A stretch of DNA of 64,000 bases from a virus (lineage: Duplodnaviria > Caudoviricetes), in the IMG/VR virus record IMGVR_UViG_3300028048_000047, positions 96,001 to 160,000 of that record; one strand, 5' to 3'. Position numbers and translations under genes: made by a program. Under the pieces are notes generated by a model. The model did not search any database. It worked only from the letters and a program-made list of their open reading frames with translations, and was not told where the DNA came from. Of this stretch, positions 23,465 through 60,557 are shown one piece after another. Each line of letters opens with the position of its first letter. Position 1 is the first letter of the stretch.

Positions 23465-23803
23465 ATGACTGTAAATAAACGATTTAAAGGTGGACAAGGG
23501 AAGGTTAGTGATGTTGGAGAGGATTTAATATTTAAATTATTATGTTTAATTGCAGAGGAGAATCAAGAGTTACGAACAAAAAACAATACTTATATTCAAG
23601 ATATAGAAACATATAGAGAAGAAAATACTCATTTAAAGTTAGAGAATGAAGAGTTAAAGAATAATATGAAAATTAAATTATGCAATAACTGTATTTATTG
23701 GCGATTGGGTACTGCGGGTCTTAATGATAATTATTGTAGTTTAACTGATGAATGGGCAGATTGGGAAGGGACTTGTGAAAAATGGAAGGGTTATCATGAC
23801 TGA
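23465..23803 (+). CDS. array-family protein (MTVNKRF), Cys tail
   Basis: Head shared with 25494. Confidence 0.75.
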   Translation: MTVNKRFKGGQGKVSDVGEDLIFKLLCLIAEENQELRTKNNTYIQDIETYREENTHLKLENEELKNNMKIKLCNNCIYWRLGTAGLNDNYCSLTDEWADWEGTCEKWKGYHD

Positions 23804-23909
23804 AAACGATTTAAAGAAGTTATTTTCACATGGATAGATAGTGGTGGTGAATATCATTATGAAAGAAGAATTGTTAGGGATATTAAAAAAGAAAAGGAGT
23901 TGAAAAAAG

Positions 23910-24221
23910 ATGATTGAAAATGCACGATTCCTATTTGTCATTGACAATGGAGAACCAACATTTTATGATTTAAGTAAAAAAGGCAAAACAATGGATATGA
24001 ATGAAACAGAAGATATGTTAAATGAGTTAAACAATGAGAATAATGAATTAAAACAATTCCAAGAAAAAGTATTTGATTGGATTGATAAAGAAATTTCTCA
24101 AAATGAAGAAGCAATTGAATGGGGAGAAAAGCAAGGTGCAGATGTGGGTGCAATGGGTTTTTATACAAATATGCTTAAAATGTTCCAAAAGGATTTTGCA
24201 GATGGACAATACAATAAATAG
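23910..24221 (+). CDS. array-family protein (MIENARF)
   Basis: Tail shared with 43486. Confidence 0.75.
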   Translation: MIENARFLFVIDNGEPTFYDLSKKGKTMDMNETEDMLNELNNENNELKQFQEKVFDWIDKEISQNEEAIEWGEKQGADVGAMGFYTNMLKMFQKDFADGQYNK

Positions 24222-25292
24222 TTACCATGATATTTTAAAATAGAGGCACGAAAATGAATGATGAGAGATTTTGTATTTATAGTAAATCAACTGATAGTAA
24301 TGTGTATGATAGAGTTGAAGACCAATATTATAGTTGGGATACTATTGTGGATTTATTAAATCATATAATTCCAAATGATGCAGATGTTTTAGAGTTGTTG
24401 GATATTCATATTGAAAATAATAAAACATTAAAAGAAAAACAATTGGATTTTATTGTTAATTTATTATTTGATATTCGTTGTTATAGTGATGTGCATTATA
24501 ATGAATTATTGGGTGGTGAATTAGCAAGAGCAGAAGCGTTAGGGTTTAATGTTGAAGATTCAAAAAATTGGGATTATGATGAAGAAAGTTATGAATTTTG
24601 GAAAAAGAAGTTACAAGAGTGAGTGGACGGGAGGTGTTGGAAAAATGAATTATGAAGAAAAATACACTTGTAAAAAAATTGAAAACCCAGTAACAAAAGA
24701 AGTAAATAATTATATACAATATAATGATACCACTATATTAAAATTAAATTCAATAACTGATTGTAAGAATGTATGTCAATTATTGAATAGACTTGATGAT
24801 ATAATTGAGGATTATAAATCTTCAATTGAATTAAAAGAAGAGGGGATGGTGTGTAAAAATGATATATGGGATACTTGGGAGTTGATTAAACCAGTTGCAA
24901 ATATGGTTTTATGGAATTGGGGATTAAAATTAGTAGGTGCAAATGATTCTTATAATCTTATTTGTTTTGATACTGAAAAATTTGAAAAAAAATTAATTGA
25001 AACAATTGAAATTAATAAAATGGTTTAAATAAAAAAAGTATGGGTAAATGAAAGTAAAGGATTTCCTTGTTAATTTTGTGAAATTGGAGGATTAAATTAT
25101 GAGTGAAGAAAATATACATATGAATTGTGAGAATTATAATCCTAAAAGGGATATGTGTCTTAAATGGTTTGAAGAAAATGTGTCAGAGAAATATAAGATT
25201 TGTAAAGAATACTCTGAATTTGATGATAAAAAGTTAAGTATGAAATGGAGTAATTAAATTAATGAAATGTTATTGTAATTTAAAGTTTAAAA

Positions 25293-25307
25293 CGAAACAT
25301 TTATATG
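25293..25307 (+). promoter_or_regulatory. archaeal BRE-TATA promoter (CGAAA-CA-TTTATATG)
   Basis: Shares TTTAAAACGAAA with the 12687 promoter. Confidence 0.7.
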
Positions 25308-25493
25308 TGATGATTTACTAATAATGTAATAGTAAGTCAAAAGAATAAAATAAATTTTAAGGAGTGAAAGAAATGACTAAAAAAGTGATATTTGAAATGG
25401 ATGTATTTGAATTGATTGAGTGGATAAATAATAATCCGTTAACTATGGCTTATTTATATGCTCTTGAAAGAAATGGTATTTTAGGTGGAAAGA

Positions 25494-25757
25494 ATGACTG
25501 AAAATAAACGATTTAAAGGTGGACAAGGGGAAGTTAGTGTTGTCAGGGAGAATTTAATATTTAAATTATTATGTTTATTTGCAGAAGAGAATCAAGAATA
25601 TAGGGAAGAAAATACTCATTTAAAGTTAGAGAATGAGAAGTTAAAAAATGTTATAGTATTTGCTTATACACTTATGAGTCTGAACACTATTTCAGATGAA
25701 GAATATTCTGAGTTTTATGAGTTATGTGAAAATATGGGGGTGAGTTTGAATGACTGA
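25494..25757 (+). CDS. chimeric array-family protein (head of 23465 + tail of 25750)
   Basis: Direct alignment. Confidence 0.8.
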   Translation: MTENKRFKGGQGEVSVVRENLIFKLLCLFAEENQEYREENTHLKLENEKLKNVIVFAYTLMSLNTISDEEYSEFYELCENMGVSLND

Positions 25758-26082
25758 AAAATGGATTATTAAAAATGGAGAAATTGTAGATACAACCAAT
25801 AATATAACCTTTGATTCATTCATGGAAATCATAATAGTGCTAAACGGACAATCAAGACAATTAACTCAAATGTCAAAAGAAAATAAGAAGTTAAAATCAA
25901 TTTGTCAAGACCATCGTGACCATGCAATTGATTTTAAAGCAGATTGTGTAAGATTAGAAAAAGAGAATAAAGAGTTAAAAAATATTATATTATTTGCTTA
26001 TACACTTATGAGTAAAAACACTATTTCAGATGAGGAATATTTTGAGTTTTATGAGTTATGTGAAAAAGTAATAAAACAATAG
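25750..26082 (+). CDS. array-family protein (MTEKW)
   Basis: FAYTLMS.NTISDEEY tail. Confidence 0.75.
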   Translation: MTEKWIIKNGEIVDTTNNITFDSFMEIIIVLNGQSRQLTQMSKENKKLKSICQDHRDHAIDFKADCVRLEKENKELKNIILFAYTLMSKNTISDEEYFEFYELCEKVIKQ

Positions 26083-26663: not shown

Positions 26664-26918
26664 ATGACTAAAAAAAGATTTGAGATAAATAATCTTGTAA
26701 AAAAAGGCACTATGAGTTTTTGGGATAATGAAAGCAAAGCAATTTTAAATGCAAGTCATACACTTGATTTATTGAATGAATTATCAGAAAAGAATGATGG
26801 ATTAAAAAAAGACTTGTTTGAAACAAGAAAAGATTATTTGATTGAAACTGCCGACATCTCCGATAAATTATATTTGGACGAGATGATTGAAAATGAACGA
26901 AAGGAGATATTTAAATGA
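26664..26918 (+). CDS. array-family protein (MTKKRF)
   Basis: RKEIFK tail shared with 48368. Confidence 0.75.
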   Translation: MTKKRFEINNLVKKGTMSFWDNESKAILNASHTLDLLNELSEKNDGLKKDLFETRKDYLIETADISDKLYLDEMIENERKEIFK

Positions 26919-27732: not shown

Positions 27733-28209
27733 ATGACTGAAAAACGATTTTATGTTGATAAAAATGGGGATTTTAGAGATACCAAAACTGGTAATATTAT
27801 AGTTGATTTTGGTTATTCCTTTAATGGAATGGACTGCAAAATGATTTTAGATTTGTTAAATAAGTTAAATGATGAATGCGAGTTTCTTGAAATTGAAAAT
27901 GAATCATTGGAAGATGGTGCAACAAAATATGCAGAATTATATCATAAATCATTAAAAGAGAATGAGGAGTTAAAACAACAATTAAAAACAAGAGTAATTG
28001 TTAATAAACAGTATGAAGAACTCCAAAGACTTAAAAAAGAGAATGAACAGTTAAAAAAAGTATTAGGTGCAATATTACTTGAAGTGAGAAGAGATATTTC
28101 AAATACGAATCAAACTGGTGAAATAAAAGTATTTATCAATCCTAATAGTTTTGATTTAATTAGTGAAGTATTAAAGAAGTATGGAGCATTAAAGGGATGG
28201 TATGAATGA
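27733..28209 (+). CDS. array-family protein (MTEKRF)
   Basis: Head domain near-identical to 43486. Confidence 0.8.
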   Translation: MTEKRFYVDKNGDFRDTKTGNIIVDFGYSFNGMDCKMILDLLNKLNDECEFLEIENESLEDGATKYAELYHKSLKENEELKQQLKTRVIVNKQYEELQRLKKENEQLKKVLGAILLEVRRDISNTNQTGEIKVFINPNSFDLISEVLKKYGALKGWYE

Positions 28210-28721: not shown

Positions 28722-29252
28722 ATGACTGAAAAACGATTTAAGATGAAAAAACTTGAATATGAATCCTATTTTATTGATTCTCAACAAGAGTATGTTGATG
28801 AAGATGAGCCGAATTTTAAGATTGATGGTGAAAAAACATTGTCAGATTCACAAATTCTTGATTTATTAAACGAGAATGAACAGTTAAAATCTGAAATAAA
28901 AGATTTGAATGATGTACTTACAAGATACGAAGAAAAGGATTTACAAAAAATGAAGAAGGATACTCATATGGATGATGAATTAAGTTCTGATGAATTTTTT
29001 AAGAAATACATGGACGAAATGGACAAAGTGGGTTATGAAGTATTTGGGATTCGTTATATGGATGATTATGTTAATCTTTTCCCAAGTGAAGATGAACAAG
29101 CAGTTCGTGATAGTTTAACAAGATTTGCAGAATCATTCCATAAAGGACATAATGCCCTACCTGTTATAATATTGGTTAATAAATATTATATTAAATCATG
29201 GTTAGAAACTGGTAATGTTAAGGACGGTTATGGTAATTTGGTTAAATTATAA
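28722..29252 (+). CDS. array-family protein (MTEKRF)
   Basis: ENEQLKSEIKDLND shared with 45202. Confidence 0.75.
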   Translation: MTEKRFKMKKLEYESYFIDSQQEYVDEDEPNFKIDGEKTLSDSQILDLLNENEQLKSEIKDLNDVLTRYEEKDLQKMKKDTHMDDELSSDEFFKKYMDEMDKVGYEVFGIRYMDDYVNLFPSEDEQAVRDSLTRFAESFHKGHNALPVIILVNKYYIKSWLETGNVKDGYGNLVKL

Positions 29253-31735: not shown

Positions 31736-31768
31736 ATAATGAAATATGTGTTATGGTTGGTGATTTGT

Positions 31769-31987
31769 ATGGTTAGAAAACAATTTAAAAAAGGGGATTT
31801 TGATGAAGATTGTGAAAGGTTTGTAGCTTTTAAAAGAGATGAATCTTATAATTTATATGATATTGTTGATACTGAAAAATTAGATTATGTGGGTTTTATT
31901 GTGCCTTATAATGACTATAAAGAGTGTGAAAGAGATTGTAATATAATGAATGTAGTAGATTATCTTTTAAAAGAGTTACAAGGATAA
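31769..31987 (+). CDS. paralog of 46317..46538
   Basis: FKKGDF.EDC.RF..DIVDTEKLDYVGFI..NIMNV.DYLLKEL. Confidence 0.75.
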   Translation: MVRKQFKKGDFDEDCERFVAFKRDESYNLYDIVDTEKLDYVGFIVPYNDYKECERDCNIMNVVDYLLKELQG

Positions 31988-34582: not shown

Positions 34583-35089
34583 ATGTCTACAAATAAACGA
34601 TTTAATTTAGTTAAATGTAAAGGAAACAGATGGGGAATTGAAGACAATATTTTAGAAAAAGAAGATACATTATTTTTTATTTGTAGAGAAGGACAATTTG
34701 AAACAAATGGATTAGTTTTGTTATTAAATCAATTAAATGATAAAAATGAACAATTAGAAAAAGAAAATCTTGATTTAACAGAAGAATTGGATTATTATAA
34801 GACTAAATGTGCTTCATTGGAAACTGGTTATATTAAGGCAGAAGATGAAAATTGGAGATTGGAAAAAACAAACATGGAATTTGCAAATGAATTGGGGAAA
34901 ACCATTGATGAGAATGAGCAGTTAAAAAATGAAAAAGAATCATGGAAAAAATCATGGATTGAAGAAATGGAAGCTCAGGAAGAACAATCTAAATGTATAC
35001 TTAAATTAGTAAACGAAAATGAAAAGTTAAAATCAGAATTGGGATATTATAGATTAAGAGATACTCCAAAATGGAGGGCAAAATGGTAA
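34583..35089 (+). CDS. array-family protein (MSTNKRF), long coiled coil
   Basis: Multiple ENEQLK heptads. Confidence 0.75.
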   Translation: MSTNKRFNLVKCKGNRWGIEDNILEKEDTLFFICREGQFETNGLVLLLNQLNDKNEQLEKENLDLTEELDYYKTKCASLETGYIKAEDENWRLEKTNMEFANELGKTIDENEQLKNEKESWKKSWIEEMEAQEEQSKCILKLVNENEKLKSELGYYRLRDTPKWRAKW

Positions 35090-37643: not shown

Positions 37644-37928
37644 ATGACTGAAAAACGATTTGAATGGGATGATATCAATATTGCAATTATCGATACTCAA
37701 AATAGGAAAAAGTATTGGATTGATGTAACTTGCATTGATGAGATTGTTGATTTGTTGAATAGTCTTGATGAAAAATATGTTGATGAGTTTATTCTTTGTG
37801 AAACACTACAACATGAGTTACAAAGAGTTGAAAATGAGAATGAGAAGTTAAAACAACAAATTAATGAATTACAATTTAACAAAGCATTAGGACAACAAGA
37901 ATATCAAAAGAGGGTTTTTTATGACTGA
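37644..37928 (+). CDS. array-family protein (MTEKRF)
   Basis: IVDLLN + ENEKLK. Confidence 0.75.
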   Translation: MTEKRFEWDDINIAIIDTQNRKKYWIDVTCIDEIVDLLNSLDEKYVDEFILCETLQHELQRVENENEKLKQQINELQFNKALGQQEYQKRVFYD

Positions 37929-38259
37929 AAAGAAACTATTTACAAAGGGAAGTGAAATTCTAAAAAAAGAAGATAAATGTTGTATATGTAACAGTAAAAA
38001 CAATCTTGAACCACATCATATTTTACATACTACAAAATATGATGAACTACATGATAGTATTGATAATCTTGTTGTAATGTGTCATAATTGTCATCATAAT
38101 TATCATCAACAGTACAATCCAGAAATAACATTCAGAACATTATTAGAATTTCAAAAAAAGTATTGGAAAGAGTATTGTCCGAAATTAAGAACAAAAAATA
38201 AAAAATTACAAAAACAGAATACAGATTTACGAAAAATAATAAACAAAATGGGGGAATAA
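37921..38259 (+). CDS. HNH endonuclease with MTEKK head
   Basis: CCIC..LEPHHI..NLVVMCHNCH..YH. Confidence 0.8.
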   Translation: MTEKKLFTKGSEILKKEDKCCICNSKNNLEPHHILHTTKYDELHDSIDNLVVMCHNCHHNYHQQYNPEITFRTLLEFQKKYWKEYCPKLRTKNKKLQKQNTDLRKIINKMGE

Positions 38260-42770: not shown

Positions 42771-42828
42771 AATAACTAAAAAATGATATTTGCTTATAAA
42801 AATCATATAATAATGTGGGTGATGATAA

Positions 42829-42987: not shown

Positions 42988-43183
42988 CTGATAAGAATTT
43001 GATAGATTTGAATTATGATGAATTGCAATGTTTAAAATCTGCAATTCATCAAATGCACAAAGGAGCAATTAGGGATTTAGATAAAGAGAGCAGATTAAGG
43101 ATTTGTAAAAGAGGATTTGAATTTATTAACGAAAAAACTGGAAAAACATTTCAAGTGACATTAGAGATAAAGGAGTTAAAAGA

Positions 43184-44842: not shown

Positions 44843-45201
44843 CTGAAAAAAGATTGGGATGGTACGGTGGGAAAAATGAATAGTTTTGAACAAACGAAAA
44901 GGGTAAAAGAGAATTATGATATTGAAAATAAATATCATAAAACGAATAGTAAATTTTTTTCATTAAGTGATTTGAAGTTGTGTGATTGTTTTGATGGGAT
45001 ACGAATTCAATTGGATGATAAAATGATTGAAGGACAGATGTATGAGATATGTAGGATAACTAATGATGAAATTGTTTTAAACCGAGAAGTTTATCCATCA
45101 CTTATTCTTAATCATGAGAGATATCAGAAAATTATTATCCCATTTGATAGTATTAAAACAATTACTTTTGATTATCATAGGGAAAAGGTAAATGATGAAT
45201 T

Positions 45202-45456
45202 ATGACTGAAAATAAACGATTTACTGTTAAACAAAGACAAGGTACAACAATTTACAGTATTATAGATTATTATGGAGAATTACCTTTAAGCGAAGGAATG
45301 TACTATAAGAACAATGCAGAAAAGTTATGCAGATGGTTGAATACTCAACATGAATCACTAAATGCTTTTTGTAAAGAGAATGAGCAGTTAAAATCTGAAA
45401 TAAAAGATTTAAACGATATAGTTACAAGGTATGAAGAAAAGGAGTTAGAAGAATGA
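45202..45456 (+). CDS. chimeric array-family protein (head like 60078, tail like 28722)
   Basis: Direct alignment. Confidence 0.8.
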   Translation: MTENKRFTVKQRQGTTIYSIIDYYGELPLSEGMYYKNNAEKLCRWLNTQHESLNAFCKENEQLKSEIKDLNDIVTRYEEKELEE

Positions 45457-46316
45457 CTGAAAAACTACATTGTGGTCAATGTAAACATTTTTATCATTTT
45501 TATTGTTCGTTAAGGAACATTCAAGTGAGTTATAGTGATAAAACTTGCCCACAATTCAAAGAGAAGTGGTATAATGACTGAAAAACTACCTGTTTGGAAA
45601 GGGAATATCTTGTATGTATGGTCAGAACATTATAATTCATATGTTGCAAATTATTCTATACCAATCCATCAAATTCTATGCTTTGGAAAAAGTGTTGAAG
45701 AATGGAAGAAAATGTTCTGTCTTGATAAATATAAGGTGATAGAATGACTGAAAAACAATACAGATTAAATAAATGGGGTACAAGGTTATTAAAAAATAAT
45801 AGACCATTATTTGATTGGACTAATGAATCCGATGAGATTGTGGATATGTTGAATGAGTTAAACGATAAGAATGAGCAGTTAAAACAACGAATTAAAAGTA
45901 GATTACATTATTATCGTGAATTATGTAATGAATTTGATAAAGATGATGGATTTACTTATAATATCGTTAAAAGAATTGTTGAAGATTTGGAAGATATTTT
46001 AAAGTGATAAAATGGCTGAAAAAAGATTTACATTTACACAAGACACATTAGTAAAAGCAGATGTATTTGATGGGAGCGAATTTGTTTGTTGTACTTTATC
46101 TGTATGGGTAGAACAATTAGTTGATTTATTAAATCAATTAAATGATGAGAATGAGCAGTTGAAAAAATCTGTAAAAAGACAACAAAGTAGCAATAATGAA
46201 TGTGCAAAATTAATAAAAGAACAACAAAAAGAAAATGAACAATTAAAACAACTTATTACAGAGTTACAAAATGAATTAAACAATTGTGAAGAAGATTATA
46301 TTTTAGAGGAATACCT

Positions 46317-46538
46317 ATGACTGAAAATAAACGATTTAAAAAAGGAGATTTTGTAGAAGATTGTCCGAGATTTATTCCTTTTGAAAGAGATGAGAATTAT
46401 ACTTTATTTGATATTGTTGATACTGAAAAATTAGATTATGTTGGTTTTATTAACCTATATACAAGCATAAATGATTGTAATAGAGATTACAACATAATGA
46501 ATGTTATAGATTATCTTTTAAAGGAGTTGAAAGAATGA
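46317..46538 (+). CDS. MTENKRF-headed paralog of 31769
   Basis: Direct alignment. Confidence 0.75.
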   Translation: MTENKRFKKGDFVEDCPRFIPFERDENYTLFDIVDTEKLDYVGFINLYTSINDCNRDYNIMNVIDYLLKELKE

Positions 46539-46808
46539 CTTGTTTATATAGAAGATATAATTTATTTACTTTATTGTGGTGATTTGTAAATGGTTGATTG
46601 TCTTAATTGTAGATATATGGAAGTTCATCAAACAATACAGAAAAGTGGAAGACATAAAATTTATGGGAGGAAAAAATTTTTATGCACTAATGATAAAAGC
46701 AAATATGTAATGTTGTTTCGTGAAGATGGAGATATTTGTGATGAATGGGAGCATAAAAACTTTTTAATAAGATTTTTAGATAAGCATTTTGGAGAAAGGT
46801 GATGTGTA

Positions 46809-47105
46809 ATGACTACAAATAAACGATTCAAAAATGTGGAAGAAAACTTGGAGTGGGGTACAGTACAATACTTCACATATCATGATGAAAAAATAACCGA
46901 TAAAGAAATTGAAAAATTAGTCAATCATTTATTAAATCAGAATGAGCAGTTAAAAAAAGAATTAAAAGTTTATCATGAAGTTGCAAGTTGCGGTAACTGT
47001 AAATATCATAACTATGACTGGTATGATGATGGAGATGAATTTGAAGTTTGCGATAATGGAAATGATGTAACTGATGGAATTTGTAAAGATTGGATGGAAT
47101 TATGA
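46809..47105 (+). CDS. array-family protein with CxxC tail shared with 55515
   Basis: C.NCKY..YDW..DGDEFE.C. Confidence 0.75.
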   Translation: MTTNKRFKNVEENLEWGTVQYFTYHDEKITDKEIEKLVNHLLNQNEQLKKELKVYHEVASCGNCKYHNYDWYDDGDEFEVCDNGNDVTDGICKDWMEL

Positions 47106-47506
47106 CTGAAAATAAACGATTTAAATTAGGATATGTTTGTGGAGATTATGGGTTAATTGATAATGATGAATGGATTGATTTACATTCAATGTCTGAAAAT
47201 TCTGAAAAGAATGTACAAATCTGTATAAACAAAATGAATGAGTTAGCAGATGAGAATGAGCAGTTAAAAAAAGAAAATAATATCTTAAAAGCATCAAATG
47301 GGGAATATGAAGATGCACTTGCAAGATTAGAAGAAGAAAATGAGCAGTTAAAACATCGTATTAAGAAGTTGCAAAATGATTTAAACAATTATTCAGAAAT
47401 TTTTAACGAATTAAATGGTCTTATAGATGAGAATGAGCAGTTAAAACAAGAGATTGAAACATTACATGAACAATTAACACATATTGATGGAGGTATGTTT
47501 GAATGA
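47102..47506 (+). CDS. array-family protein with three ENEQLK motifs
   Basis: Read directly. Confidence 0.75.
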   Translation: MTENKRFKLGYVCGDYGLIDNDEWIDLHSMSENSEKNVQICINKMNELADENEQLKKENNILKASNGEYEDALARLEEENEQLKHRIKKLQNDLNNYSEIFNELNGLIDENEQLKQEIETLHEQLTHIDGGMFE

Positions 47507-47704
47507 CAAGTAAACAATGTAATTCATGCAAACACCATATTCATGTTAAAGAATTAACAGAAGGATGTTTCTATGTTACAACTAAATTCATGAATAAGCG
47601 AAATTGTGATTTATATGAAAATGGGGAAATAAATCAAGCACATAAGGAATATTTTAAAAAAGTGGGGAAAGAATATCCTTTTACAGAAATAAGGTGAGAA
47701 TAAA

Positions 47705-48034
47705 ATGACTGAAAAACGATTTACATTAACTTTTGATGATAAAATAGTTGATAACTTAACTGGAATTATACACGAGGTTCATAGTGGATATGATGTTGCT
47801 ATGGATTTAAGTGGATTGTTGAATGATTTAAATGATGATAATGAGCAGTTAAAATCAATAATAAAAGAAGTTACTGAATTATTATCTGATGAAGTTGATT
47901 TATTCTCCGATAAAGCAACAGAACATGACCTTAATGCTTATATGGAATTAAATGAATTTGACAATAAAGATGCTTTTTATATGGCAACCGCTACAAAGAA
48001 AGCAATACGAATGTTAAAGGAGTTGCAAGAATGA
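47705..48034 (+). CDS. array-family protein (MTEKRF)
   Basis: IVDNLTG + LLNDLN. Confidence 0.75.
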   Translation: MTEKRFTLTFDDKIVDNLTGIIHEVHSGYDVAMDLSGLLNDLNDDNEQLKSIIKEVTELLSDEVDLFSDKATEHDLNAYMELNEFDNKDAFYMATATKKAIRMLKELQE

Positions 48035-48367
48035 GAAAAGGCGATTTAATTACTTTATTAAACAGTAACTTCACAGATGATGCAGAAATACGAATTGCAG
48101 AAAATCCTAAATGTTTAATGGTTGTTGAAGGATATATGGCAACTATGATAAATTTAGAAAAAGAATGGGAAACTGATGGGGAGTTAGAATGACTGAAAAA
48201 CGATTAGAATTACCTACTGGAATTCTTATAATTTTAGATAAAAAATTAGAATCTACACAAATGAGAGAAAAAGGTTTCATTAATGGAATAGGTAGGAAGA
48301 TTGTTACAGAATGTCATGTTGGAGAGGAAGTTTTTAGTAGATTAATAGAAGAATATGGGGATTTAGA

Positions 48368-48742
48368 ATGAGTGAAAAACGATTTACTGTTGAAGATGAT
48401 GATGCAGAAATATGGGAGGATGACTACTTCCTTGCAGTAGCATGCAACCGTACTAATACAAAGAATATTGCTAAAAAATTAAACAAACTTGCATATGGGA
48501 ATAAACAGTTAAAAAAACAATTAAGTGATGATTTTAATCAATTAAATTGTATAACTGTGCAGAAAAGTATTATTTCTGATTTAAAAAAAGAGAATGATGA
48601 GTTAAAAAAAGAGAATGATGAGTTAAAAACAGAATTATTTGAAGTAAGTAAAGAACTTTTATGGACAACAAGTGATGAAGTCGATAGAGTATTATGCTAT
48701 GAAGATGAAGTTGAAGAATTGAGAAAGGAGATATTTAAATGA
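48368..48742 (+). CDS. array-family protein (MSEKRF) with a 21-bp tandem heptad duplication (48581-48622)
   Basis: TTAAAAAAAGAGAATGATGAG x2. Confidence 0.75.
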   Translation: MSEKRFTVEDDDAEIWEDDYFLAVACNRTNTKNIAKKLNKLAYGNKQLKKQLSDDFNQLNCITVQKSIISDLKKENDELKKENDELKTELFEVSKELLWTTSDEVDRVLCYEDEVEELRKEIFK

Positions 48743-49084
48743 CTGGTAAATCTTGTTTCAATTGTAAACACTTTGAAATAAGAGATAATTTCTTTACAAG
48801 CACTGGTCAGAAAGGATTTATAACCGATTTAAAAAAATGTGGGTGGGAATATATGGTTTATAAGGATACAAAAGAAAATAGGAAATTTTTCAGTAATATC
48901 TACTGCAATACATGGGAGCTGAAACAATGACTGAAAAACGATTTGTTAAATACGATGGAAACAAGATTGTTGATTTAAAATATGAGGTTGCTTGGAGAAT
49001 AGGTATAGGGGATGTTGATTTATTACTTAAAATATTAAACAATGAAAAGGACATTGATGAACCGATAAAAAGAGAGGGATAGGA

Positions 49085-49376
49085 TTGAATAAACGATTTT
49101 GGTGGAATTGTAAACCATCTTGAAACAGACAGAAATCTTAGTGTAGCATTTTGTAGCAAAAATAATGATTTTTGTAGTAAAGGAAAATGTAATGAGATTA
49201 CTACCGACAAGAAAAGACAATGGTATCTTGAAGAAAATGAAAGGTTAAAACAATCCCATAATGAAGTAATTGAGCTTCTGCTTGATGGGATTGTTGAAAT
49301 GCACGATGGAAAAAGAGAGTATGCAGAAACACTATTTAATAAAGCGGATTAAATTATTGAAAGGGGATATTTTTGA
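49085..49376 (+). pseudogene. frameshifted MNKRF cassette
   Basis: Removing one C at ~49115 gives MNKRFWWNCKHLE..EENERLK; further TAA at 49350 before the TGA abutting the next start. Confidence 0.55.
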
Positions 49377-51534
49377 ATGAATGAAATTTCAATTGACATT
49401 ACAAAACTCAGCATTAAACCATACAATTGCACATATTATTGTCCTCGGACATTATTATCAAAAAGTAATTGCATCGGATATTGTCAAATGGGAAATAATG
49501 ATGTAAAATATTGTAAAGGTTCTTATTGTGAAGAATATGAGAAGAAGGAGGATTTTGAATGACTGAAAGAAGATTTATTTATACATTTAAGAAGAATGGT
49601 ACGATGGTTATTATTGATAAAAAAGATAATGTTTTAATTCGTGATAAATATCGTGCTTGTGATTATTTAAATAGGTTAAACAATGAGAATGAGCAGTTAA
49701 AAGAAGATTTAGATTATTATAAAAAAAGAATAAAAGAATTAGAAATTGAAAATCAAAGACAATCTGATGCAATTGATGGATTACAAGGATTTATAACCCA
49801 TTACGATTGGAGGATTTAGAATGACTGAAAAACAGTTTATATATAACAGGTGTGAAGATGGATTTTATGATATAATTGATATAAAAAACCATCATGCTTA
49901 TCCAATAGGTAATATGGAAATATTTATTATTGGAATTGTTGAATTATTAAATAATTTAGCAGAAAAAAATAAAAACTTGAAAAAAAAGAATGAGCAGTTA
50001 AAACAATTACTGTTACAATTCTATACAGAAGATGAAATTAATGCAGAGATGATTTGAATGATTTTGAAAGTTCTGATGAAATGGAGAAAATGGATTAAGA
50101 TTATGAGATACTGTTTAACAGTAAAAAATCTTATTTATGATTTTTTAGGGTGTTAAAATTGAATTTTTGGTGGAAATGTATTTATCTTCAATATCATAAT
50201 CATTTACCTTTGTGTATGAATCCTAATTTGTATATGACTAAGCGTAGGCGTGATTGTTTGATGAGTGATTGTGATTGTATGGTTTTTGAAGGTGAGCATA
50301 AAAGTATTATGAGGTGATTAGAATGACTGAAAAAAATGTTTCAAATGAAAAAATGACCGAAAAAAAATTTGTTGCAATGTATGTTGTTGATGGAGAGATG
50401 GCAATTGTTGATACTCACACTACAACTGCTTACTATACCATTGGTGAAATTGAAAAGTTATTGAATGAACAACAAGAAATTATTGTTAAACAAGCCCAAA
50501 AGTTAATAGAATTAGACAGATGGTAAAAAAGGGAGTTATGAAAATATGATGGAAAAGACAAAGTTAATTTTCAAAGATGATGTGATAAACGGATATAAAC
50601 ATTATATTAATTTTAAAAGAGATTTTAGTGGAGCATTAGCAGTATTTGAAAAATATATTTTACCAGCTTATGCGGATATTGGTATCGATGCAAATAATGA
50701 CTGGTTAATATTAACTCTTCAATATGATACTGAAATGGAAGATTATCTTGAAATATTAAAGCAAGATTGGAATTATTTAACTGAATTTTTGAATAATGAA
50801 GGTATCCAATTTTCATATCCATCAATGTATGATGATTGGAGCATGGTGATTCCAATTGATGATTTTGTTGAATGGGTGCTAAAAAATGACTGAACTATAC
50901 GGTAAACAATACTACTCTAATCTCATTACAGATAACATACAAGTACATTTAGTTAGAGTATTACTGCGACAAGATATGAATAATCAAATATGGAAAACAA
51001 TTTCATCAAAAATATCAGTAAAACCCACTTATAATAAAGAATGGATTACAAAAGAATTGGATTTAGATGACGATGAGATTACAGTTACAATAACTACCAA
51101 AAAAGGTAAAAAAATCGAGTTTACTAAAAAATTAGAAATATATACTCCTACTGATGAAGAGTTAAACGAATGGGATAATACTCATGATAAGAAATTTGTT
51201 AGTCGAATGAGATGTCCTCCTGCCGATGAGGTTGGTGGGAATACTGGGGTATTAAGGTGATTGTGAATGACTGAAAAACGATTTAAGCTTGTATATATTG
51301 ATGATGATGATGAATGGAGTTTATATGATTCTGTTGAGGGAAAATATTATAATATAGACCTTACAATGTATCAAAAGGAGATAGAAAGGTTAGAGAGAAA
51401 TCATAAAAACTTACATGAAAAATATGAAGAAATAGAAAGGAAATACAAAGAGTATTATCGTAAATATACTCAAATAAAGAATAATATCAATAGTGCGAAA
51501 CGAATTTATTTAAATTTGAAGGAGTGCTTTGAGA

Positions 51535-51849
51535 ATGGCTAAACGATTTAAAATTACTCAAAAGGGAGATTTGTTTACAGTTAGAGATGTTGTTGAAAAT
51601 AAACCTATGGGAGTATTTGAGTTTAAAGAAAATGAATTTCCAATATATGCTTGTTTTCATCGTATAATAGACTTGTTGAATGAGTTAAACGATGAGAATG
51701 AGCAGTTAGAAGAAGGATGGAAAAGATGTAGAGATTGGCTAAATTCTGATAAATATGATTATGAATTGACATTGGCATTTATCAAAAACAAAGGATATTC
51801 ATTAAAAGATGTGCTTGAATATGAAAAGGAGTTGAAGATGAATGACTGA
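51535..51849 (+). CDS. array-family protein (MAKRF)
   Basis: FIK.KGYSL tail shared with 52446. Confidence 0.75.
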   Translation: MAKRFKITQKGDLFTVRDVVENKPMGVFEFKENEFPIYACFHRIIDLLNELNDENEQLEEGWKRCRDWLNSDKYDYELTLAFIKNKGYSLKDVLEYEKELKMND

Positions 51850-52155
51850 ATTTTTAGTATCTTTTGAGTTATGGACAATTTTATATATTCTTATTCTTGT
51901 TCCACTTTGTACTTTTTTAATTGTTTTTGCTTATAGAATTGCAAAAAGTTTAGAAATAGGATTACTGGAACGATGGAATCGTAGAATTGTTAATCAAAAT
52001 AAAAAAGTGATTATGGAAAATATTAAAGTTTCAAATGAATTGATTGATATGCAGTATCAATTAAGAAAAGAATTAGAACTGACTAAAAAGGATTTAAAAA
52101 AATACGAAAGATGAAATTCAAACAGAATTGATGTAAAATAGGAGTTGCAAATGAA

Positions 52156-52449
52156 ATGGTTGAAAAACGATTTGAATATAATGTGAATAAGAACAGTATT
52201 GAATATGATGGGAAACATTTCACATACTGCAATGTGGAACAGTCAAAGATTGCAAAGAAGTTGAATGAGTTGCACGAAGAAAACAAGGAACTCAAACAAT
52301 TCAAAAAATCAGTATTTGCTTTGATAAATGAGAAAATAACATTTGTAAATGAATGTGAGAAGAATCATAACGATATTGGAATACCTCATGAATACTATCG
52401 TGGAGCAGATGAAATATTGAATTTATTAAAAAAGGAGTTAGTGGAATGA
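52156..52449 (+). CDS. array-family protein (MVEKRF)
   Basis: LNELHEENKELK. Confidence 0.75.
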   Translation: MVEKRFEYNVNKNSIEYDGKHFTYCNVEQSKIAKKLNELHEENKELKQFKKSVFALINEKITFVNECEKNHNDIGIPHEYYRGADEILNLLKKELVE

Positions 52450-52931
52450 CTGAAAAACGATTTAAAGAACAAAATCTTGAAAATCATTTGAATAGAATAT
52501 ATGATACTACAAAAGGGGGAGTTGTTTTTGATGAAGATATTGTTGATTTGTTGAATGAGTTACACGAAGAAAATCAAACATTAAAAAATAAGTATGAGAA
52601 ATTACGAAGGACTGGTGCAAGTCTTGGAGTAGAAAATGATGGATTAATATCTGAAAATTATGAGTTACAAAAAGAGAATGATGAATTAAAAAAAGAGATT
52701 ACTTCATTAAAAGTTGAATTAGATACACATAAACACCCATTATGGAGTACAAGAGAATCTGAAAGAATAGTTAATGAACTCAAACAAGAAAATGAGAAGT
52801 TAAAACAACAATTAACTCATTGTAGAAAACTGTTAAATGATGATTTAGATATTGCATTAGAGTTTATTAAACATAAAGGATATTCATTACAAGATTTAAA
52901 AGATTACGAAAAGGCGATGCAGAATGACTGA
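52446..52931 (+). CDS. mosaic array-family protein
   Basis: Modules shared with 40544 and 51535. Confidence 0.8.
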   Translation: MTEKRFKEQNLENHLNRIYDTTKGGVVFDEDIVDLLNELHEENQTLKNKYEKLRRTGASLGVENDGLISENYELQKENDELKKEITSLKVELDTHKHPLWSTRESERIVNELKQENEKLKQQLTHCRKLLNDDLDIALEFIKHKGYSLQDLKDYEKAMQND

Positions 52932-53355
52932 AAATAAACGATTTGGTTTTGAAATGGATAAAAACTGTTATAAATGTATTGTAGATATTCGTGATAAAAA
53001 ATTGTATACTGATAAAAAACAAGTTGTTGGTTTGTTAAATCAGTTAAATGATGAGAATGAGCAGTTAAAGACAATACGAAGCGATTTAATCTTTGAATTA
53101 GATATATTAATGCAAAACTGGGAAGCACTTGATAAAGAGAAAGATGAGCAACTTGATAAACAAAATCACACATTAAAAAAAATAAAAGGAGAAAATGAGC
53201 AGTTAAAACATAATAATAAAATGTTATCAATGAAAATGAGCGAAGTATATACTAAATATTGTTTATTAAATGAATTTAGTGATGATACAAATCCGAATGA
53301 TGCAGTTAAAAGAATTTTATCTGAATTAATGCAAATAACAAAAGAATATAGGTGA
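52924..53355 (+). CDS. array-family protein (MTENKRF)
   Basis: LNDENEQLK. Confidence 0.75.
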   Translation: MTENKRFGFEMDKNCYKCIVDIRDKKLYTDKKQVVGLLNQLNDENEQLKTIRSDLIFELDILMQNWEALDKEKDEQLDKQNHTLKKIKGENEQLKHNNKMLSMKMSEVYTKYCLLNEFSDDTNPNDAVKRILSELMQITKEYR

Positions 53356-53822
53356 TGATTTGAATGGCTGAAAAACGATTTAAAGTTACAAATATTTCCT
53401 CAAATGGTATGACAGGATTATTTTGGTTAGGAAAAGATAAGTTATCAGTATATGATGTGGTAAAGTTATTAAATGAATTATTTGAAGATGTAAAAAGATT
53501 GGAAGAAGAGAATGAGCAGTTAAAAAATCAGAATGAATTATTATCTGATGAATTAGAGCAATGTAAAGCAGTAATTGATTACCGATGGAGCGAATACTTA
53601 AAGAAAAAAGAGGAGCAAGAGAATGACTGAGAATAAACGATTTACTGTAAAACAATTAATCAAATATCTTGCAGATTTCAATCCTAATGCAGTGATAATG
53701 AATAATATTAATCCAAGTTGGTTTACTGGAATGGGAGAAGAACAAATAAGAAATATTGAAAATGAAAAATTGAATGCCTCAAAAGTATGGTTATTTGATG
53801 ATGATGAAGAGAGGTTTTGAAA

Positions 53823-54164
53823 ATGACTGAAAAAAGATGTACCGATTGTAAACATACAAAAGGAATAGGATATGATTTTTGGTGTGGTGAGGGTCATACT
53901 GAATATGAAGTTTTCGGAGCAGAAACAAACTGTCCGTATTATGAATACCATGATTGGAGTAAAGACACTCCAAGTAGAACTGAAAAACAATTATATGAGG
54001 TAATCAACAAAGAAGAACCACGAGGACAATCAGTAACTTATAAAGACATTCCTTGTACTACAAGAACTTGTGTTACACGATTAAATAAATTAACAGAAGA
54101 AAATGAACAATTACAAAAGAGAATAATGATATTACAAGATAAACTAAAAGGACTGATGAAATGA
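53823..54164 (+). CDS. Cys-rich cassette fused to a second head remnant (RTEKQ)
   Basis: CTDCKH..WCGEGH..RTEKQ..LTEENEQL. Confidence 0.7.
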   Translation: MTEKRCTDCKHTKGIGYDFWCGEGHTEYEVFGAETNCPYYEYHDWSKDTPSRTEKQLYEVINKEEPRGQSVTYKDIPCTTRTCVTRLNKLTEENEQLQKRIMILQDKLKGLMK

Positions 54165-54335
54165 CTGAAAAACGATTAAAATTATCTGATATTTTTGATG
54201 TTGAAATTGTATTACACGATGGGAAATTTTTTTATGAATTGGAATTTGAGGATTATGTTCTTGAACAACCATCTGATTTTCCAGTTAAAGCAGTATTGAA
54301 AAAAGGTAAATTTATAACAAAAAAAGAGGCATTAT

Positions 54336-54773
54336 ATGACTGAAAAACGATTTACTTGGAATAGTAAAGAAGTAGTGATTGATGATAATGTTACTGGAAA
54401 TCAATTAGAAGTGATGGATATTACTGAAATTGATGTACTTATTGATTTGTTGAATGAGTTAAATGATGAGAATAAGCAATTACGGAACGAAAAAGAACGA
54501 TATAAAAGATTAAGTGAAATTAGACAACAACAAATAGATAATCGTATTCTTACAATTAAAGAATTTATAGATGATTGTTCTGACAATAAAGTTAGAAGTG
54601 CATTAAAAGAGTTATTTTATTCAGAAGTAAATGAATATGATTTATCTTCGGAAAATAGAAAATTACTTAATGAGAATGAGCAGTTAAAAAAAGAATTAAA
54701 ATCTTTTAAACCAATTATTTTTGAGAGTGATGGGAAACCAGTTACATTATACAAAAAAGGTGATGTGGAATGA
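54336..54773 (+). CDS. array-family protein (MTEKRF)
   Basis: IDDNVTG + DLLNELNDEN. Confidence 0.75.
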   Translation: MTEKRFTWNSKEVVIDDNVTGNQLEVMDITEIDVLIDLLNELNDENKQLRNEKERYKRLSEIRQQQIDNRILTIKEFIDDCSDNKVRSALKELFYSEVNEYDLSSENRKLLNENEQLKKELKSFKPIIFESDGKPVTLYKKGDVE

Positions 54774-55102
54774 CTGAAAAAAGATTTATATATTGTTTTG
54801 AAGGGATTGAAGATAAATGGGAAACTGTGGAGGAATATAAATATACTCCTTGTACCAAAGATGGTTTTCAAGATTTATGTTATATGTTGAATGAGTTAAA
54901 CGATGAGAATGAACAGTTAAAACAAACTATATCTGATTGGATGGGTTCTTATGATGGATTGTATGAAGATGTAAAAAGATTAGAAAAAGAGAATGAGAAT
55001 TTTAAAAAAGCATTACGGATTGTATATTCAACAAAATTAACTGAACCTACCAAACATACTATTGAACAAATAGCAAAGCATTGCAGGGTTGATTTAGAAT
55101 GA
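54770..55102 (+). CDS. array-family protein (MTEKRF)
   Basis: EDVKRLE.ENE shared with 53364. Confidence 0.75.
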   Translation: MTEKRFIYCFEGIEDKWETVEEYKYTPCTKDGFQDLCYMLNELNDENEQLKQTISDWMGSYDGLYEDVKRLEKENENFKKALRIVYSTKLTEPTKHTIEQIAKHCRVDLE

Positions 55103-55514: not shown

Positions 55515-55982
55515 ATGACTGAAAATAAACGATTTATAGTTAAGGATATATGGATTAAAGATAATTGTATTGGGACATTGTTGAATATTGATTTTAACAC
55601 TATTACTGATGCTAATTTATGTTGTGGTCTATTAAATCAGATTGAAAAAGAAAAGAGGAATAATGGTAAACTTGCAAGTAAATTATTAGAAAAGAATGAA
55701 CAGTTAAAATCCGAAATTGAAAAATTATCTTATACTAATGAAGATTTACTTGAAGAAAAAAGAATTTGGAAACAAATGTCAGATGAATACACAAAATTAT
55801 CTGATGATATTGAACAGTTAAAAAAAGAATTGAATATATATACAAGGATAGCAACTTGTAGTAATTGTAAATATCAAGATTATGACTGGTTTGAAGATGG
55901 TGATGAATTTGAAATTTGTAAAAAAGGAAATAATAATCAACAAATAGAATATCATATTTGCAAAGAATGGGAGGAATTTTGA
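55515..55982 (+). CDS. array-family protein (MTENKRF) with CxxC tail
   Basis: Tail shared with 46809. Confidence 0.75.
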   Translation: MTENKRFIVKDIWIKDNCIGTLLNIDFNTITDANLCCGLLNQIEKEKRNNGKLASKLLEKNEQLKSEIEKLSYTNEDLLEEKRIWKQMSDEYTKLSDDIEQLKKELNIYTRIATCSNCKYQDYDWFEDGDEFEICKKGNNNQQIEYHICKEWEEF

Positions 55983-56146
55983 AAATGACTGAAAATAATA
56001 AACGATTATGGTATATCATGTGTTATTGTAATGATAAAATTGAAGCAGAAAATAAAGATGAAGCATATACAATATTCTGTAAAAAACACAATTTTAAAGA
56101 AGAAAATGCACAATTTGTAAGTTATAGTAGAGTAAAGGTGGATTAA

Positions 56147-57803: not shown

Positions 57804-58118
57804 ATGACTGAATTAACTGATAAAGAAAAAGCATTATTGATTTTGGAAAAATCAAGTGAAGAATTTACTAAATGTACAACAGAAATTAGAAAATTACAAG
57901 AATCATTATATGCTTTGAATTGTGCATTTGAAAATACAAGTAGACTACTTAATAGATACTTTAACGAAGAGGAAAACGGAGGCAATATTCATAAAAACTG
58001 TGAATGGTATAATCCTGAAAAAGATTATTGTAGTAATTATATGATGGGAAAGTATACTGGTTTGGCTTTTAATGTTTCAAAAAATAAGGAATGTATTAAG
58101 GATTTGGTGGATGAATGA
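57804..58118 (+). CDS. MTELTDKEKALLILEK protein, copy 1
   Basis: Paralog of 58408. Confidence 0.75.
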   Translation: MTELTDKEKALLILEKSSEEFTKCTTEIRKLQESLYALNCAFENTSRLLNRYFNEEENGGNIHKNCEWYNPEKDYCSNYMMGKYTGLAFNVSKNKECIKDLVDE

Positions 58119-58407
58119 CTGAAAAACGATTTTTTATTTTGAAAGATGAAAAATTTAAAGATGTTTTACCATGTATAAGGGATAGAAATTCAAAAATAGA
58201 TGATATTTATGGACATTATAAGTATGATGACATCGAACAAATATGTTTATTCTTAAATGAGCAAAATGATGAAATTGAAATGTTAAAATCTATTAAAAAA
58301 ATTATACAAAATTATAATACTAATGAATATAAGCATTCATCAGATGCTTTAACAGATATTATGGACATACTTGAAAAATAAATATCTAACTTTAAGGAGT
58401 GGTTTTT

Positions 58408-58725
58408 ATGACTGAATTAACTGATAAAGAAAAAGCATTACTCATATTAGAAAAAGCAAAAAATGCTTTCAATGAATGTGGTAAACAAGTAAGGGAAACT
58501 CAAACTGCTTTTAGGGGGGAATTAACATCAGCAGTTGAAACTGCAAATGATAATCTTAAAAGAGTCTTGAATGAAGAGGAAAATAATGGTAATATTCATA
58601 AAGATTGTAGATGGTATAATCCGAATAAGGATTCTTGTAGTAATTATATGATGGGGAAATATACTGGTTTGGCTTTTGAAGTAAGTAGACATGATAAATG
58701 TATTAAGGATTTGGTGAATGAATGA
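58408..58725 (+). CDS. MTELTDKEKALLILEK protein, copy 2
   Basis: Paralog of 57804. Confidence 0.75.
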   Translation: MTELTDKEKALLILEKAKNAFNECGKQVRETQTAFRGELTSAVETANDNLKRVLNEEENNGNIHKDCRWYNPNKDSCSNYMMGKYTGLAFEVSRHDKCIKDLVNE

Positions 58726-58907
58726 CTGAAAAAAGATTTACAATAGTTAATATGGGATTGAATGGACAATATATAAAAGAAAATGGAAAAATAATAACAA
58801 TAGAAAGAGTTGTCGATTTATTAAATGAGAACGAGCAGTTAAAGGATTTCATACGAAAAGAATTTCCCAAAAATATCATATAAACATATCCATTAGGAGG
58901 TTTTTGA

Positions 58908-59366
58908 ATGAATATGGAAAAAATGACTCTTGAAGAAAAACTTGAATATTACCAAAGACAAACTCATCAACTTAAAAAAAGAAGAGATGATGCTAATGAT
59001 AAAATAGAATATTTAAATAGTTATATTAAAGAATTACATCAAGAGATTAATAATTTAAAATCTGAAAAACGATTTAAACAAGTTGTTGATGGTGTTAAAG
59101 ACACAAGAACTGGTAGGACTTTAACACACCCGTTAGACTTTACTTTGAAATTGAATGAACTTAATACCTTATATGATTATGTTTTTGATAGGAACGAAGA
59201 ACTTGAAAAAAAGAATGAACAATTAAAACAACAATTATCAGATATTAAGGGACAATTAGTAATGTTGGATAACTGTGACAATTGGGATTATGACCGAATG
59301 AAACATACTGTAAGAGAGATTGCAGAAATAATTGGTTATAATGGAACAATAAACCCTAAAATGTGA
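58908..59366 (+). CDS. coiled coil fused to an internal array module (SEKRF)
   Basis: Internal TCTGAAAAACGATTT. Confidence 0.7.
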   Translation: MNMEKMTLEEKLEYYQRQTHQLKKRRDDANDKIEYLNSYIKELHQEINNLKSEKRFKQVVDGVKDTRTGRTLTHPLDFTLKLNELNTLYDYVFDRNEELEKKNEQLKQQLSDIKGQLVMLDNCDNWDYDRMKHTVREIAEIIGYNGTINPKM

Positions 59367-60077
59367 TGTGCAATGACCGATGAAGATTGTGATAAAATTA
59401 TAGAATTATGTTGGTGGCATTTAGGAACTTGTGAATTAGCAGATTGTATTATAGATTCTTGTGATATAATGTGTGGTGATATGGAATGATTGTTGATGGT
59501 ATAAGTCTAATAATGGGGGGAATCTTTGGTTTCATAATAGGCATAGCATTAGTAAAAGACAAATATAGGAAAGAATGTCATAGATTAGAAGAAAATATTA
59601 TCAGATTACAATATGATGCCCAAATAACTAAATACAAAAATCAGAGGTGATGAGGAATGACTTGTCAATTTGAAGATAGTACAATGATTGATACTCATTG
59701 TAAAATCAAAATATGGAATGATGGATTTGAGGACACTTACTGTCAAACTGGTTGTCCTTTAAAAGAGTTAAAAGGGGATGTGGAATGACTGGAATTGATG
59801 ATTTAATTATATGCCCACGATGCTTAAAACCTATGGGGGAAGAAGTGGATACAATGGTTTGTCAATATTGTGAGTATAATGAAAAAGAAAACAATGAACT
59901 TGAAAAAGGAAAGAAATTTGATAAGGAATTGGATTAAATGAGCAGTTTAACAGATATTTATGTAATTCATCAAATAACTGGATTACCGTACACAAGCATA
60001 ATAACTATAAGCATTATTGGATTTATAATACTATGCCCAATAGTGATTTTTTTAGTGAAGAAGAATGGAGAATTATT

Positions 60078-60557
60078 ATGACTACGAATAAACGATTTAC
60101 TGTTAAACAAAGGCAAGGTACAACAATTTACAGTATTATAGATTATTATGGAGAATTACCTTTAAGTGAAGGAATGTACTATAAAAGCAATGCGAATAAA
60201 CTATGTGAATGGTTAAATACTCAACACGAATTGTTAAATACTTTGTATAATGAGAATGATGAGTTAAAAGCAAGTAATGAAGGTCTTTTAAAAGATTTGT
60301 ATGATAGGTTTAAACTTATCAAATCAGTAGAAAAAGAAAATCAACAATTAGTTAAAATGCTTGACAATGTAACGAATTATATACAAAGAGAACATAAAGA
60401 AATTCCAATTGATGATTTTGTGGAATGGTGGAATAATATAGCAACAGAAGGATTAGAAGATGATAATAGTGTTAATGAAAATAAGATTAGAAAAAGAAAA
60501 GTTAAAGCAGATGGTAAGGTGGATTATGTAGGTATTTCAAAGGAGGATTTAGAATGA
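60078..60557 (+). CDS. array-family protein (MTTNKRF)
   Basis: First ~140 nt near-identical to 45202. Confidence 0.8.
   Translation: MTTNKRFTVKQRQGTTIYSIIDYYGELPLSEGMYYKSNANKLCEWLNTQHELLNTLYNENDELKASNEGLLKDLYDRFKLIKSVEKENQQLVKMLDNVTNYIQREHKEIPIDDFVEWWNNIATEGLEDDNSVNENKIRKRKVKADGKVDYVGISKEDLE

Follow-up and report, generated by a model that had tools for sequence, protein, structure and literature searches.

The window analysed here is a 64,000 nt stretch, bases 96001–160000, of a 195,936-base virus record rated complete (IMG/VR record IMGVR_UViG_3300028048_000047). It holds an array of small genes that share a conserved start encoding MTEKRF, termed the head, and an internal motif encoding ENEQLK, termed the hinge. 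The array is a mosaic: similarity between its genes breaks at the hinge, the parts in front of and behind the hinge assort independently of one another, and the conservation of synonymous sites around the hinge is limited to the motif itself. The genome encodes a large terminase (Terminase_6C, 30.5 bits) and, in one protein at window positions 61466–62188, two TFIIB cyclin domains (70 and 48 bits). Thus, the record belongs to a tailed virus of an archaeon.

The array, its head and its hinge

Small plus-strand genes fill the window from about 7 kb to 61 kb. The array comprises about 60 genes and about 30 % of the 196-kb genome; its weaker members extend back to about position 7000, and heads and ENEQLK-like motifs are restricted to 100–157 kb of the genome. 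The dense part of the array, a representative member and individual copies of the hinge are located as follows (window coordinates).

17002–60754, + strand: dense part of the array, with MTEKRF heads and at least one ENEQLK hinge motif per gene
54770–55102, + strand: representative member, 110 aa, with its hinge motif at 54905–54922
34910–34927, + strand: exact 18-mer GAGAATGAGCAGTTAAAA, a secondary copy in the tail of gene 34583–35089
41683–41700, + strand: exact 18-mer, the hinge of gene 41530–41727
55806–55823, + strand: degenerate motif GATATTGAACAGTTAAAA, site of the joint in a sheep-gut contig, with 13 shared letters

Each gene follows one plan: the MTEKRF head, a variable N-domain of about 40 residues, the hinge (..LLNxLND-ENEQLK) and a variable coiled-coil tail. 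Tails are strings of sub-modules with further copies of the motif between them, and extra ENEQLK copies are frequent. All 67 MTEKRF-type starts in the window are on the plus strand. As nucleotides the head, ATGACTGAAAAACGATTT, is strongly conserved, and it overlaps the stop of the preceding gene as ATGA in 62/67 cases. Synonymous sites within it are conserved too, with Thr encoded by ACT in 18/18 instances and Arg by CGA in 26/33, against a background of 14 %. The same head (e.g. 54770–54787) also fronts unrelated proteins, among them small Cys-rich ones at 41007, 47503, 48739, 53823 and 55099.

Sixteen exact copies of the 12-mer GAATGAGCAGTT are found on the plus strand of the window, where 0.01 are expected from shuffles. 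All 16 are in frame and read ENEQL, with none intergenic or in another frame, and 14 sit between 41 and 55 kb. They include all 13 positions at which an earlier reading of this DNA from its letters (hereafter the sequence-only reading) had reported exact recurrence of the motif. With up to 4 mismatches allowed, the 18-mer GAGAATGAGCAGTTAAAA occurs 65 times on the plus strand and 0 times on the minus strand. The GAATGA core that the same reading saw as common to hinge and head is present in 27 of the 67 heads; it is absent from the rest, and is a mere 6-mer. Inspection by eye for pairing between head and hinge RNA found only 5 bp. No match came from a megablast search of 50,697 phage records with an 8-kb piece of the array, and Pfam and PHROGs searches with ten members returned sub-threshold coiled-coil matches and no family.

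The gene at 37921–38259 (+ strand), an array member, has an MTEKK head and an HNH-like CxxC...HH...CHxCH core, and would be a nuclease gene within the array. A two-gene unit is tandemly duplicated at 57804–58381 and 58399–58990 (57804–58132 aligns with 58408–58739 at 75 % nt identity), with an MTEKRF gene after each copy (58115 and 58722). Open reading frames (ORFs) 22736–23197 and 50314–50526 carry a second in-frame MTEKRF/MTEKKF head in mid-ORF and appear to be two-unit fusions. A module that is not a coiled coil (KGDF.EDC.RF...LYDIVDTEKLDYVGF) occurs twice, at 31778–31985 and 46329–46536, with 80 % nt identity; it stands behind the family head at 46317 and without a head at 31739, and is found in other contigs as well. 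Eight pieces of the array, within 41488–54449, are matched without a difference by contigs of an RNA library from bovine gut, a weak hint that the array may be expressed, DNA carry-over being possible.

Chimeric genes and independent assortment

Chimeras within the window were mapped by self-blastn. The genes concerned, named below by their first position, are these.

25494–25757, + strand: chimera with head and N-domain of the 23426/23465 type and tail of the 25750 type; junction motif at 25629–25646
43486–43902, + strand: chimera with N-domain of the 27733 type up to the motif at 43627–43644, a private spacer, and a 23910-type tail from the motif at 43726–43743
45202–45456, + strand: chimera with N-domain of the 60078 type and post-motif segment of the 28722 type; junction at the exact motif 45376–45393
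52446–52931, + strand: multi-module gene, with module 52707–52806 in common with gene 40544 and the last module in common with gene 51529
46809–47105, + strand: gene with its Cys-rich tail alone in common with gene 55515–55982; similarity from the motif at 46938–46955
26664–26918, + strand: gene with its tail alone in common with gene 48368–48742
47102–47506, + strand: gene with three motif copies (47252, 47336, 47429), whose head and N-domain recur in the viral contig L039 with another tail
54336–54773, + strand: gene whose last module, from the exact motif at 54672–54689 to the stop, recurs in L039 behind the N-domain of gene 47102

The front of gene 25494 is matched by two blocks (23437–23568 with 25464–25597, 87 %; 23611–23662 with 25598–25649, 92 %) and its tail by one (25628–25732 with 25962–26066, 90 %), and the head and tail blocks overlap on the motif at 25629. 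In all-vs-all blastp its N-domain pairs with 23426 only and its tail with 25750 only. Gene 43486 is matched in front by 27733–27875 (43486–43628, 91 %), a block that ends at the motif at 43627, and behind by 24027–24196 (43717–43886, 76 %), a block that begins 9 nt upstream of the motif at 43726. For gene 45202 the two blocks, 45199–45393 with 60075–60269 (87 %) and 45373–45453 with 28869–28949 (86 %), overlap on the motif at 45376. The first shared block of gene 52446 (52707–52806 with 40688–40787, 89 %) ends at the motif at 52788–52805; the second pairs 52830–52932 with 51746–51850 (76 %).

In two further pairs the tails alone are alike. Similarity between genes 46809 and 55515 starts at the motif (46943–47121 with 55811–56007, 73 % nt identity); the tails are 53 % identical in amino acids and the N-domains are without similarity. 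The tails of genes 26664 and 48368 are 46 % identical over 48 aa (E 1e-10) from the motif-like KNDGLK/ENDELK onward, at the protein level only, and their front domains are unrelated. The parentage that the sequence-only reading had given to 25494 (head of 23465, tail of 25750), 43486 (head of 27733, tail of 23910) and 45202 (head of 60078, post-motif segment of 28722) is thereby borne out, as are the modules it saw 52446 share with 40544 and 51535 (gene 51529) and the two pairs it described as alike in their tails only. Its wider observation, that similarity starts or stops near LNDE/ENEQLK, holds likewise: the named chimeras switch parent at the motif or at a motif-like stretch. Paralogous halves in this contig are 73–92 % identical in nucleotides.

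The ends of similarity blocks are concentrated at the same places, with an excess of about fivefold at the motif both within the window and against other contigs. For self-comparison blocks of at least 75 nt, 9/32 ends lie no more than 12 nt from the motif against 5.7 % expected (p 5e-5), and 6/32 lie at the head (p 0.01). When the window is compared with other viral contigs, 27 of 109 distinct ends fall within the same 12 nt of the motif (5.9 % expected, p 1.6e-10) and 19 of 109 at the head (about 6 % expected, p 2.5e-5). A second crossover hotspot had been proposed for the motif. The enrichment of block ends at both motif and head agrees with it, hotspot being meant here as a concentration of breakpoints and not as a rate.

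Single junctions can also be read in other contigs. Gene 1148–1399 of L039 (83 codons) matches gene 47102 from the start through the hinge (93 % nt identity), and from the hinge to the stop and into the next head it matches window positions 54672–54775 (98 %). The two matches overlap on GAGAATGAGCAGTTAAAAAA only, a shared 20-mer, and the switch lies inside GAGAATGAGCAGTTAAAAAA. This is the cleanest single junction, and it is unaffected by the attraction of BLAST ends to conserved sequence or by ascertainment based on the motif. Further junctions were read from assembled contigs of public ruminant-sample runs, with uncovered parts of the array stretch in runs X2, X4 and X24 given no weight. In a contig from sheep gut, position 54909 runs on into 55811, the two sides having 13 letters in common, so that gene 55515's tail follows the N-domain of gene 54770. 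In two runs, contigs follow the window through the head at 41530–41547, carry a different N-domain, and return to the window sequence at 41680, three bases ahead of the hinge.

The assortment of fronts and tails was assessed across the array by splitting 50 motif-bearing genes at their first hinge and comparing each half all-vs-all by blastp (E <= 1e-3). Related N-domains made up 30 pairs and related tails 27, with 0 pairs in both lists. Free assortment predicts about 0.7 shared pairs, whole-gene duplication many. Heads and tails are thus incongruent, as the sequence-only reading had supposed. The same independence is seen in a metagenome collection of 5.8 billion proteins. At an identity of at least 60 %, 44 proteins carried the N-domain of gene 54770; 0 of them had the tail of that gene, and their own tails formed 22 clusters unrelated to one another. 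The tail of gene 54770 was found in 12 proteins, 0 of which had its N-domain. Relatives of this N-domain run together in alignment until ENEQLK and then diverge, and the tails of window genes 28206, 51529, 46809 and 27356 are found elsewhere behind the N-domain of gene 54770.

Codon usage and predicted structure of the hinge

Across the array GAG makes up 17–20 % of Glu codons and CAG 13–17 % of Gln codons. Of the 23 copies that read exactly ENEQLK, 17 have GAG for the first Glu (Fisher p 5e-6), 14 have GAG for the second Glu (p 7e-5) and 21 have CAG for the Gln (p 4e-9), each against a dipeptide-matched background. The minority codons pointed out by the sequence-only reading therefore depart from background even when the next residue is matched. 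A column scan of 46 copies shows that this departure in synonymous sites is limited to the six codons of the motif, with G-statistics of 51, 14, 29, 75, 26 and 6, whereas flanking codons reach at most 12. Gln within the motif is CAG in 28/32 copies; the Gln right after it is CAA in 13/13.

The same codons are kept in relatives. Two relatives, L010 and L011, came from a search by peptide pattern and are thus unbiased as to codon; 11/11 of their ENEQLK copies are the exact 18-mer. Another 30 loci with family members hold 52 copies once the retrieving copies are excluded; 29 of these are exact, where codon usage predicts about 0.4 %. A synonymous recoding of the hinge would read GAAAATGAACAATTAAAA. 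A scan of viral contigs for AATGAT together with ENEQLK gave 10 matches, too few for statistics, and provided a contrast: an unrelated ...NDENEQLK protein in other AT-rich viral contigs, encoded there as GAA AAT GAA CAA TTA AAA. One candidate reason for the G-ending codons, an out-of-frame ATG...TAA or the stops in both other frames, was dropped, as the all-A synonymous version keeps both stops.

A coiled coil around the hinge, also part of the sequence-only reading, is supported by the predicted fold. The AlphaFold model of the 54770 protein (mean pLDDT 85) has a beta hairpin at residues 2–19, a short helix, a long helix at 33–87 and a last helix; the long helix starts at LLNELND and includes the motif. 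Foldseek comparison of this model with the PDB gave nothing at E <= 0.001, and its Atlas look-alikes are unnamed viral clusters. As a homodimer the protein scored 0.60, where the best of three controls scored 0.00; among proteins of solved structure, 20/30 of those that are pairs of one chain and 1/23 of those that are single chains attained this score. The dimer model was built on a custom alignment, and coiled coils resemble many solved dimers. Three homodimer runs agree in at least 96 % of contacts, with a partner pLDDT of at least 85. The 54770 protein is thus predicted to be a parallel in-register dimer, although the score may reflect likeness only and not binding. The dimer model is a second line of support for the coiled-coil hinge.

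In-register self-contacts fall at positions 40, 43, 47, 50, 54, 57 and onward, which places Asn47 and Leu50 of the motif in the core of the model. The motif Asn and Leu are invariant in 46/46 copies. Leucine zippers of the GCN4/bZIP kind have the spacing L-x-x-L-x-x-x-N-x-x-L with a buried core Asn. The array proteins have the same spacing with a core Asn in a predicted parallel in-register dimer, but no basic region. The best Pfam scores to bZIP, HALZ and TSC22 were 21.6–23.4 bits, under gathering cut-offs of 28–30, and membership was rejected, every match being below the Pfam cut-off. Membership in the Ead/Ea22-like family (PF13935) was likewise set aside, the score of 15.3 bits falling short of the gathering cut-off of 27; one row of the Atlas structural look-alikes is of this kind, with a TM of 0.68.

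Recombination at the hinge, alternatives and known systems

The reading preferred here, at a probability of roughly three in four, is homology-guided crossover at an in-frame, register-preserving anchor within a predicted dimeric leucine zipper. Head ATGACTGAAAAACGATTT and hinge GAGAATGAGCAGTTAAAA are kept at the nucleotide level, and recombination would be resolved within their 18–20 nt of identity, in crossovers that are probably guided by homology and that may involve copies in one genome, in sister genomes or in relatives infecting the same cell. A crossover in the hinge would keep both the reading frame and the heptad register, leaving nearly all head × tail combinations foldable. As the hinge is in frame and the heptad register fixed, junctions would survive, and N-domains and tail modules would assort freely across a population-wide pool. 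Copies that keep the consensus would go on recombining and seed new copies, while isolated copies would decay toward A. The minority codons would then persist because the process itself retains consensus copies, and the degeneracy of copies at the array's edges is in keeping with this. The G-ending codons may be kept by such consensus-only recombination, by conversion or by second-order selection. No RVT_1, RecT, Rad51 or Resolvase match was obtained in the 196-kb genome, and host recombination enzymes may act; a diversity-generating retroelement was ruled out by the same lack of RVT_1. Diversifying pressure probably acts on the products, which would be dimeric and either early or accessory proteins. 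Their number, their diversity and their distance from structural genes allow the conjecture that they are accessory proteins engaging the host.

Several points weigh against crossover guided by the hinge. BLAST block ends are somewhat attracted to a conserved motif, and the count of 27/109 may be coloured by loci L012–L074, which were chosen for the exact motif; the within-window test of block ends and the loci found by peptide are free of motif-based ascertainment. Copies of the motif are paralogues and non-independent, and the Fisher and binomial p-values are therefore overstated, which makes the contrast between motif and flanks the sturdier argument. A founder motif with G-ending codons, continually copied, would yield the same pattern without selection on the DNA, and selection for foldable chimeras alone would also put surviving junctions at a domain boundary. 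Finally, the motif is not uniform here: its third codon is GAG in 14/23 ENEQLK copies, and copies at the array edge are degenerate.

A stronger version, in which head and hinge are dedicated cis recombination signals for programmed cassette shuffling and a virus enzyme keeps the anchors identical, is considered unlikely. Were it true, the virus would hold a library of dimeric effectors continually rebuilt from a population-wide pool of N-domains and tails, and the common zipper core might let members cross-pair, multiplying the combinations.

It is likewise doubtful that the 18-mer is conserved for a DNA or RNA cis function of its own (a regulator or nuclease site, a modification target or an mRNA signal) with recombination as a side effect. 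The sharp stop of synonymous conservation at the motif edges, which holds across viruses, would suit such a function, as would third-position G kept despite a change of residue (codon 1 may be AAG, CAG, GTG or GGG, and codon 4 GAG or AAG). However, variants that keep the G are also expected from single point changes off the consensus, the motif showed no recognisable structure or known signal, and all copies are in-frame ENEQL. The head, moreover, is conserved in like manner with a different sequence, which a shared process fits better than two separate signals.

Programmed site-specific shuffling, with a virus enzyme acting on the 18-mer as Rci acts on sfx, is quite improbable. In the R64 shufflon, Rci, an adjacent tyrosine recombinase, acts on inverted 19-bp sfx repeats in pilV to give a reversible switch in one expressed gene. 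The array resembles it in having a coding repeat of about 18 nt, against about 19 bp there, that links a front part to alternative C-terminal parts, and weak matches to candidate enzymes were found: Phage_integrase at genome 165892–166350 (25.5 bits) and HNH (PF01844) at window 37978–38109 (18.6 bits). Both are below their cut-offs (27.1 and 21.4, respectively). All of the 65 copies are direct repeats, which excludes a shufflon-type inversion switch and between which intramolecular exchange would merely delete, and every gene here is complete. Degenerate copies of the motif are sites of junctions as well (one of them with 13 letters in common), as is the head, a sequence unrelated to the motif, and halves that are 73–92 % identical record old, fixed events and no running switch. 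As a separate observation, a tyrosine-recombinase-like ORF lies at genome 165892–166680, about 10 kb past the array; judging by this ORF the virus may be temperate.

That the family simply arose by the usual birth and death of tandem genes, with the motif as its most constrained piece of protein and only domain-boundary chimeras surviving, is very improbable. This would account for the junction at a structural boundary and for the invariant Asn and Leu, core residues that are paired in the dimer model, but protein constraint leaves minority codons at three synonymous sites unexplained; exact 18-mers recur in other viruses, and junctions resolve within nucleotide identity. That an assembler jumped between strains at the repeat is hardly credible, even for a metagenome assembly from ruminant samples in which many related strains coexist, given junction identities of 13–20 nt, below usual assembly k-mers, diverged halves within one contig that cannot be reused reads, and the same architectures in independent assemblies and samples.

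Methanobrevibacter is the probable host, judged by sequence matches. A scan of 596 Gb of prokaryote genomes found seven Methanobrevibacter assemblies, from the guts of goats and other ruminants, in which a locus holds several copies of the exact 18-mer. The sole multi-copy locus outside Methanobrevibacter among the genome assemblies was a 2.9-kb rumen contig binned as Gastranaerophilales, with three 18-mers; the remaining matches were almost all scattered singles, those in unrelated bacteria mostly at chance level. Public runs from cattle, sheep and goat gut hold 10–37 % of a 10-kb piece of the array. Runs with small shares of array words were set aside, and the habitat is named no finer than ruminant gut. 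Past the array, at about 61000–64000 of the window, composition shifts abruptly, AT skew becoming negative and coding sequence G+T-rich; by its translation, ORF 62224–62919 encodes a putative DnaQ-type 3′–5′ exonuclease.

Among known systems, the PeSL elements of T4-type phages are intergenic cassettes of promoter and stem-loop terminator that move whole genes (Arbiol et al. 2010, PMC2839356; Comeau et al. 2014, PMC4122927). As with these, a short motif is repeated in a hyperplastic region of small non-essential genes, and modules are shuffled within and between viruses. The hinge, in contrast, is coding and in frame, swaps protein halves and belongs to a virus with an archaeal host; it is therefore not a PeSL, though PeSL-like in its working. 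The head anchor is nearer to PeSL in position than the hinge. At the far end of the genome (168000–195936; L087 and L088, e.g. L087:12180–12430), a cassette of about 200 nt stands before many genes in copies 80–87 % identical. It contains a T-run, GTGGTGTGGACATATATGGGTTGG, a TATA-like AAACATTTATATAC, AAGGAGATG and a start codon, apparently a terminator and a ribosome-binding site. By analogy, it looks like the truer, archaeal counterpart of PeSL.

The gp37/gp38 adhesins of T-even tail fibres are also described as recombining at conserved motifs (Tetart et al. 1996, 1998, cited by Trojet et al. 2011, PMC3157838). There, one or two structural genes per phage are involved and are swapped between phages, whereas here a paralogous array of 60 members gives no match to a virion-protein family and the synonymous sites of the motif depart from background.

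Silent cassettes of Neisseria (pilE/pilS) and Borrelia (vlsE) are copied into one expression site by gene conversion. Common to these systems and the array are conserved nucleotide segments that flank variable ones and guide the mixing recombination. In the array, however, every copy comes with a ribosome-binding site and start codon of its own, and exchanges look reciprocal or duplicative and are fixed in the genome.

To our knowledge, clear cases of motif-guided mosaicism in viruses are few, mostly intergenic and mostly from bacterial phages, and literature searches turned up neither a description of this family nor an in-frame anchor of this sort from an archaeal virus. What distinguishes the present array is an anchor inside coding sequence, at which both frame and coiled-coil register are kept, together with synonymous-site conservation beyond protein function and a scale of about 60 genes, one front being found with 22 tails. 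Viruses of rumen methanogens are poorly known, and their accessory genes bear on their use against methane producers. In the array described here, a short coding sequence would double as a recombination joint.

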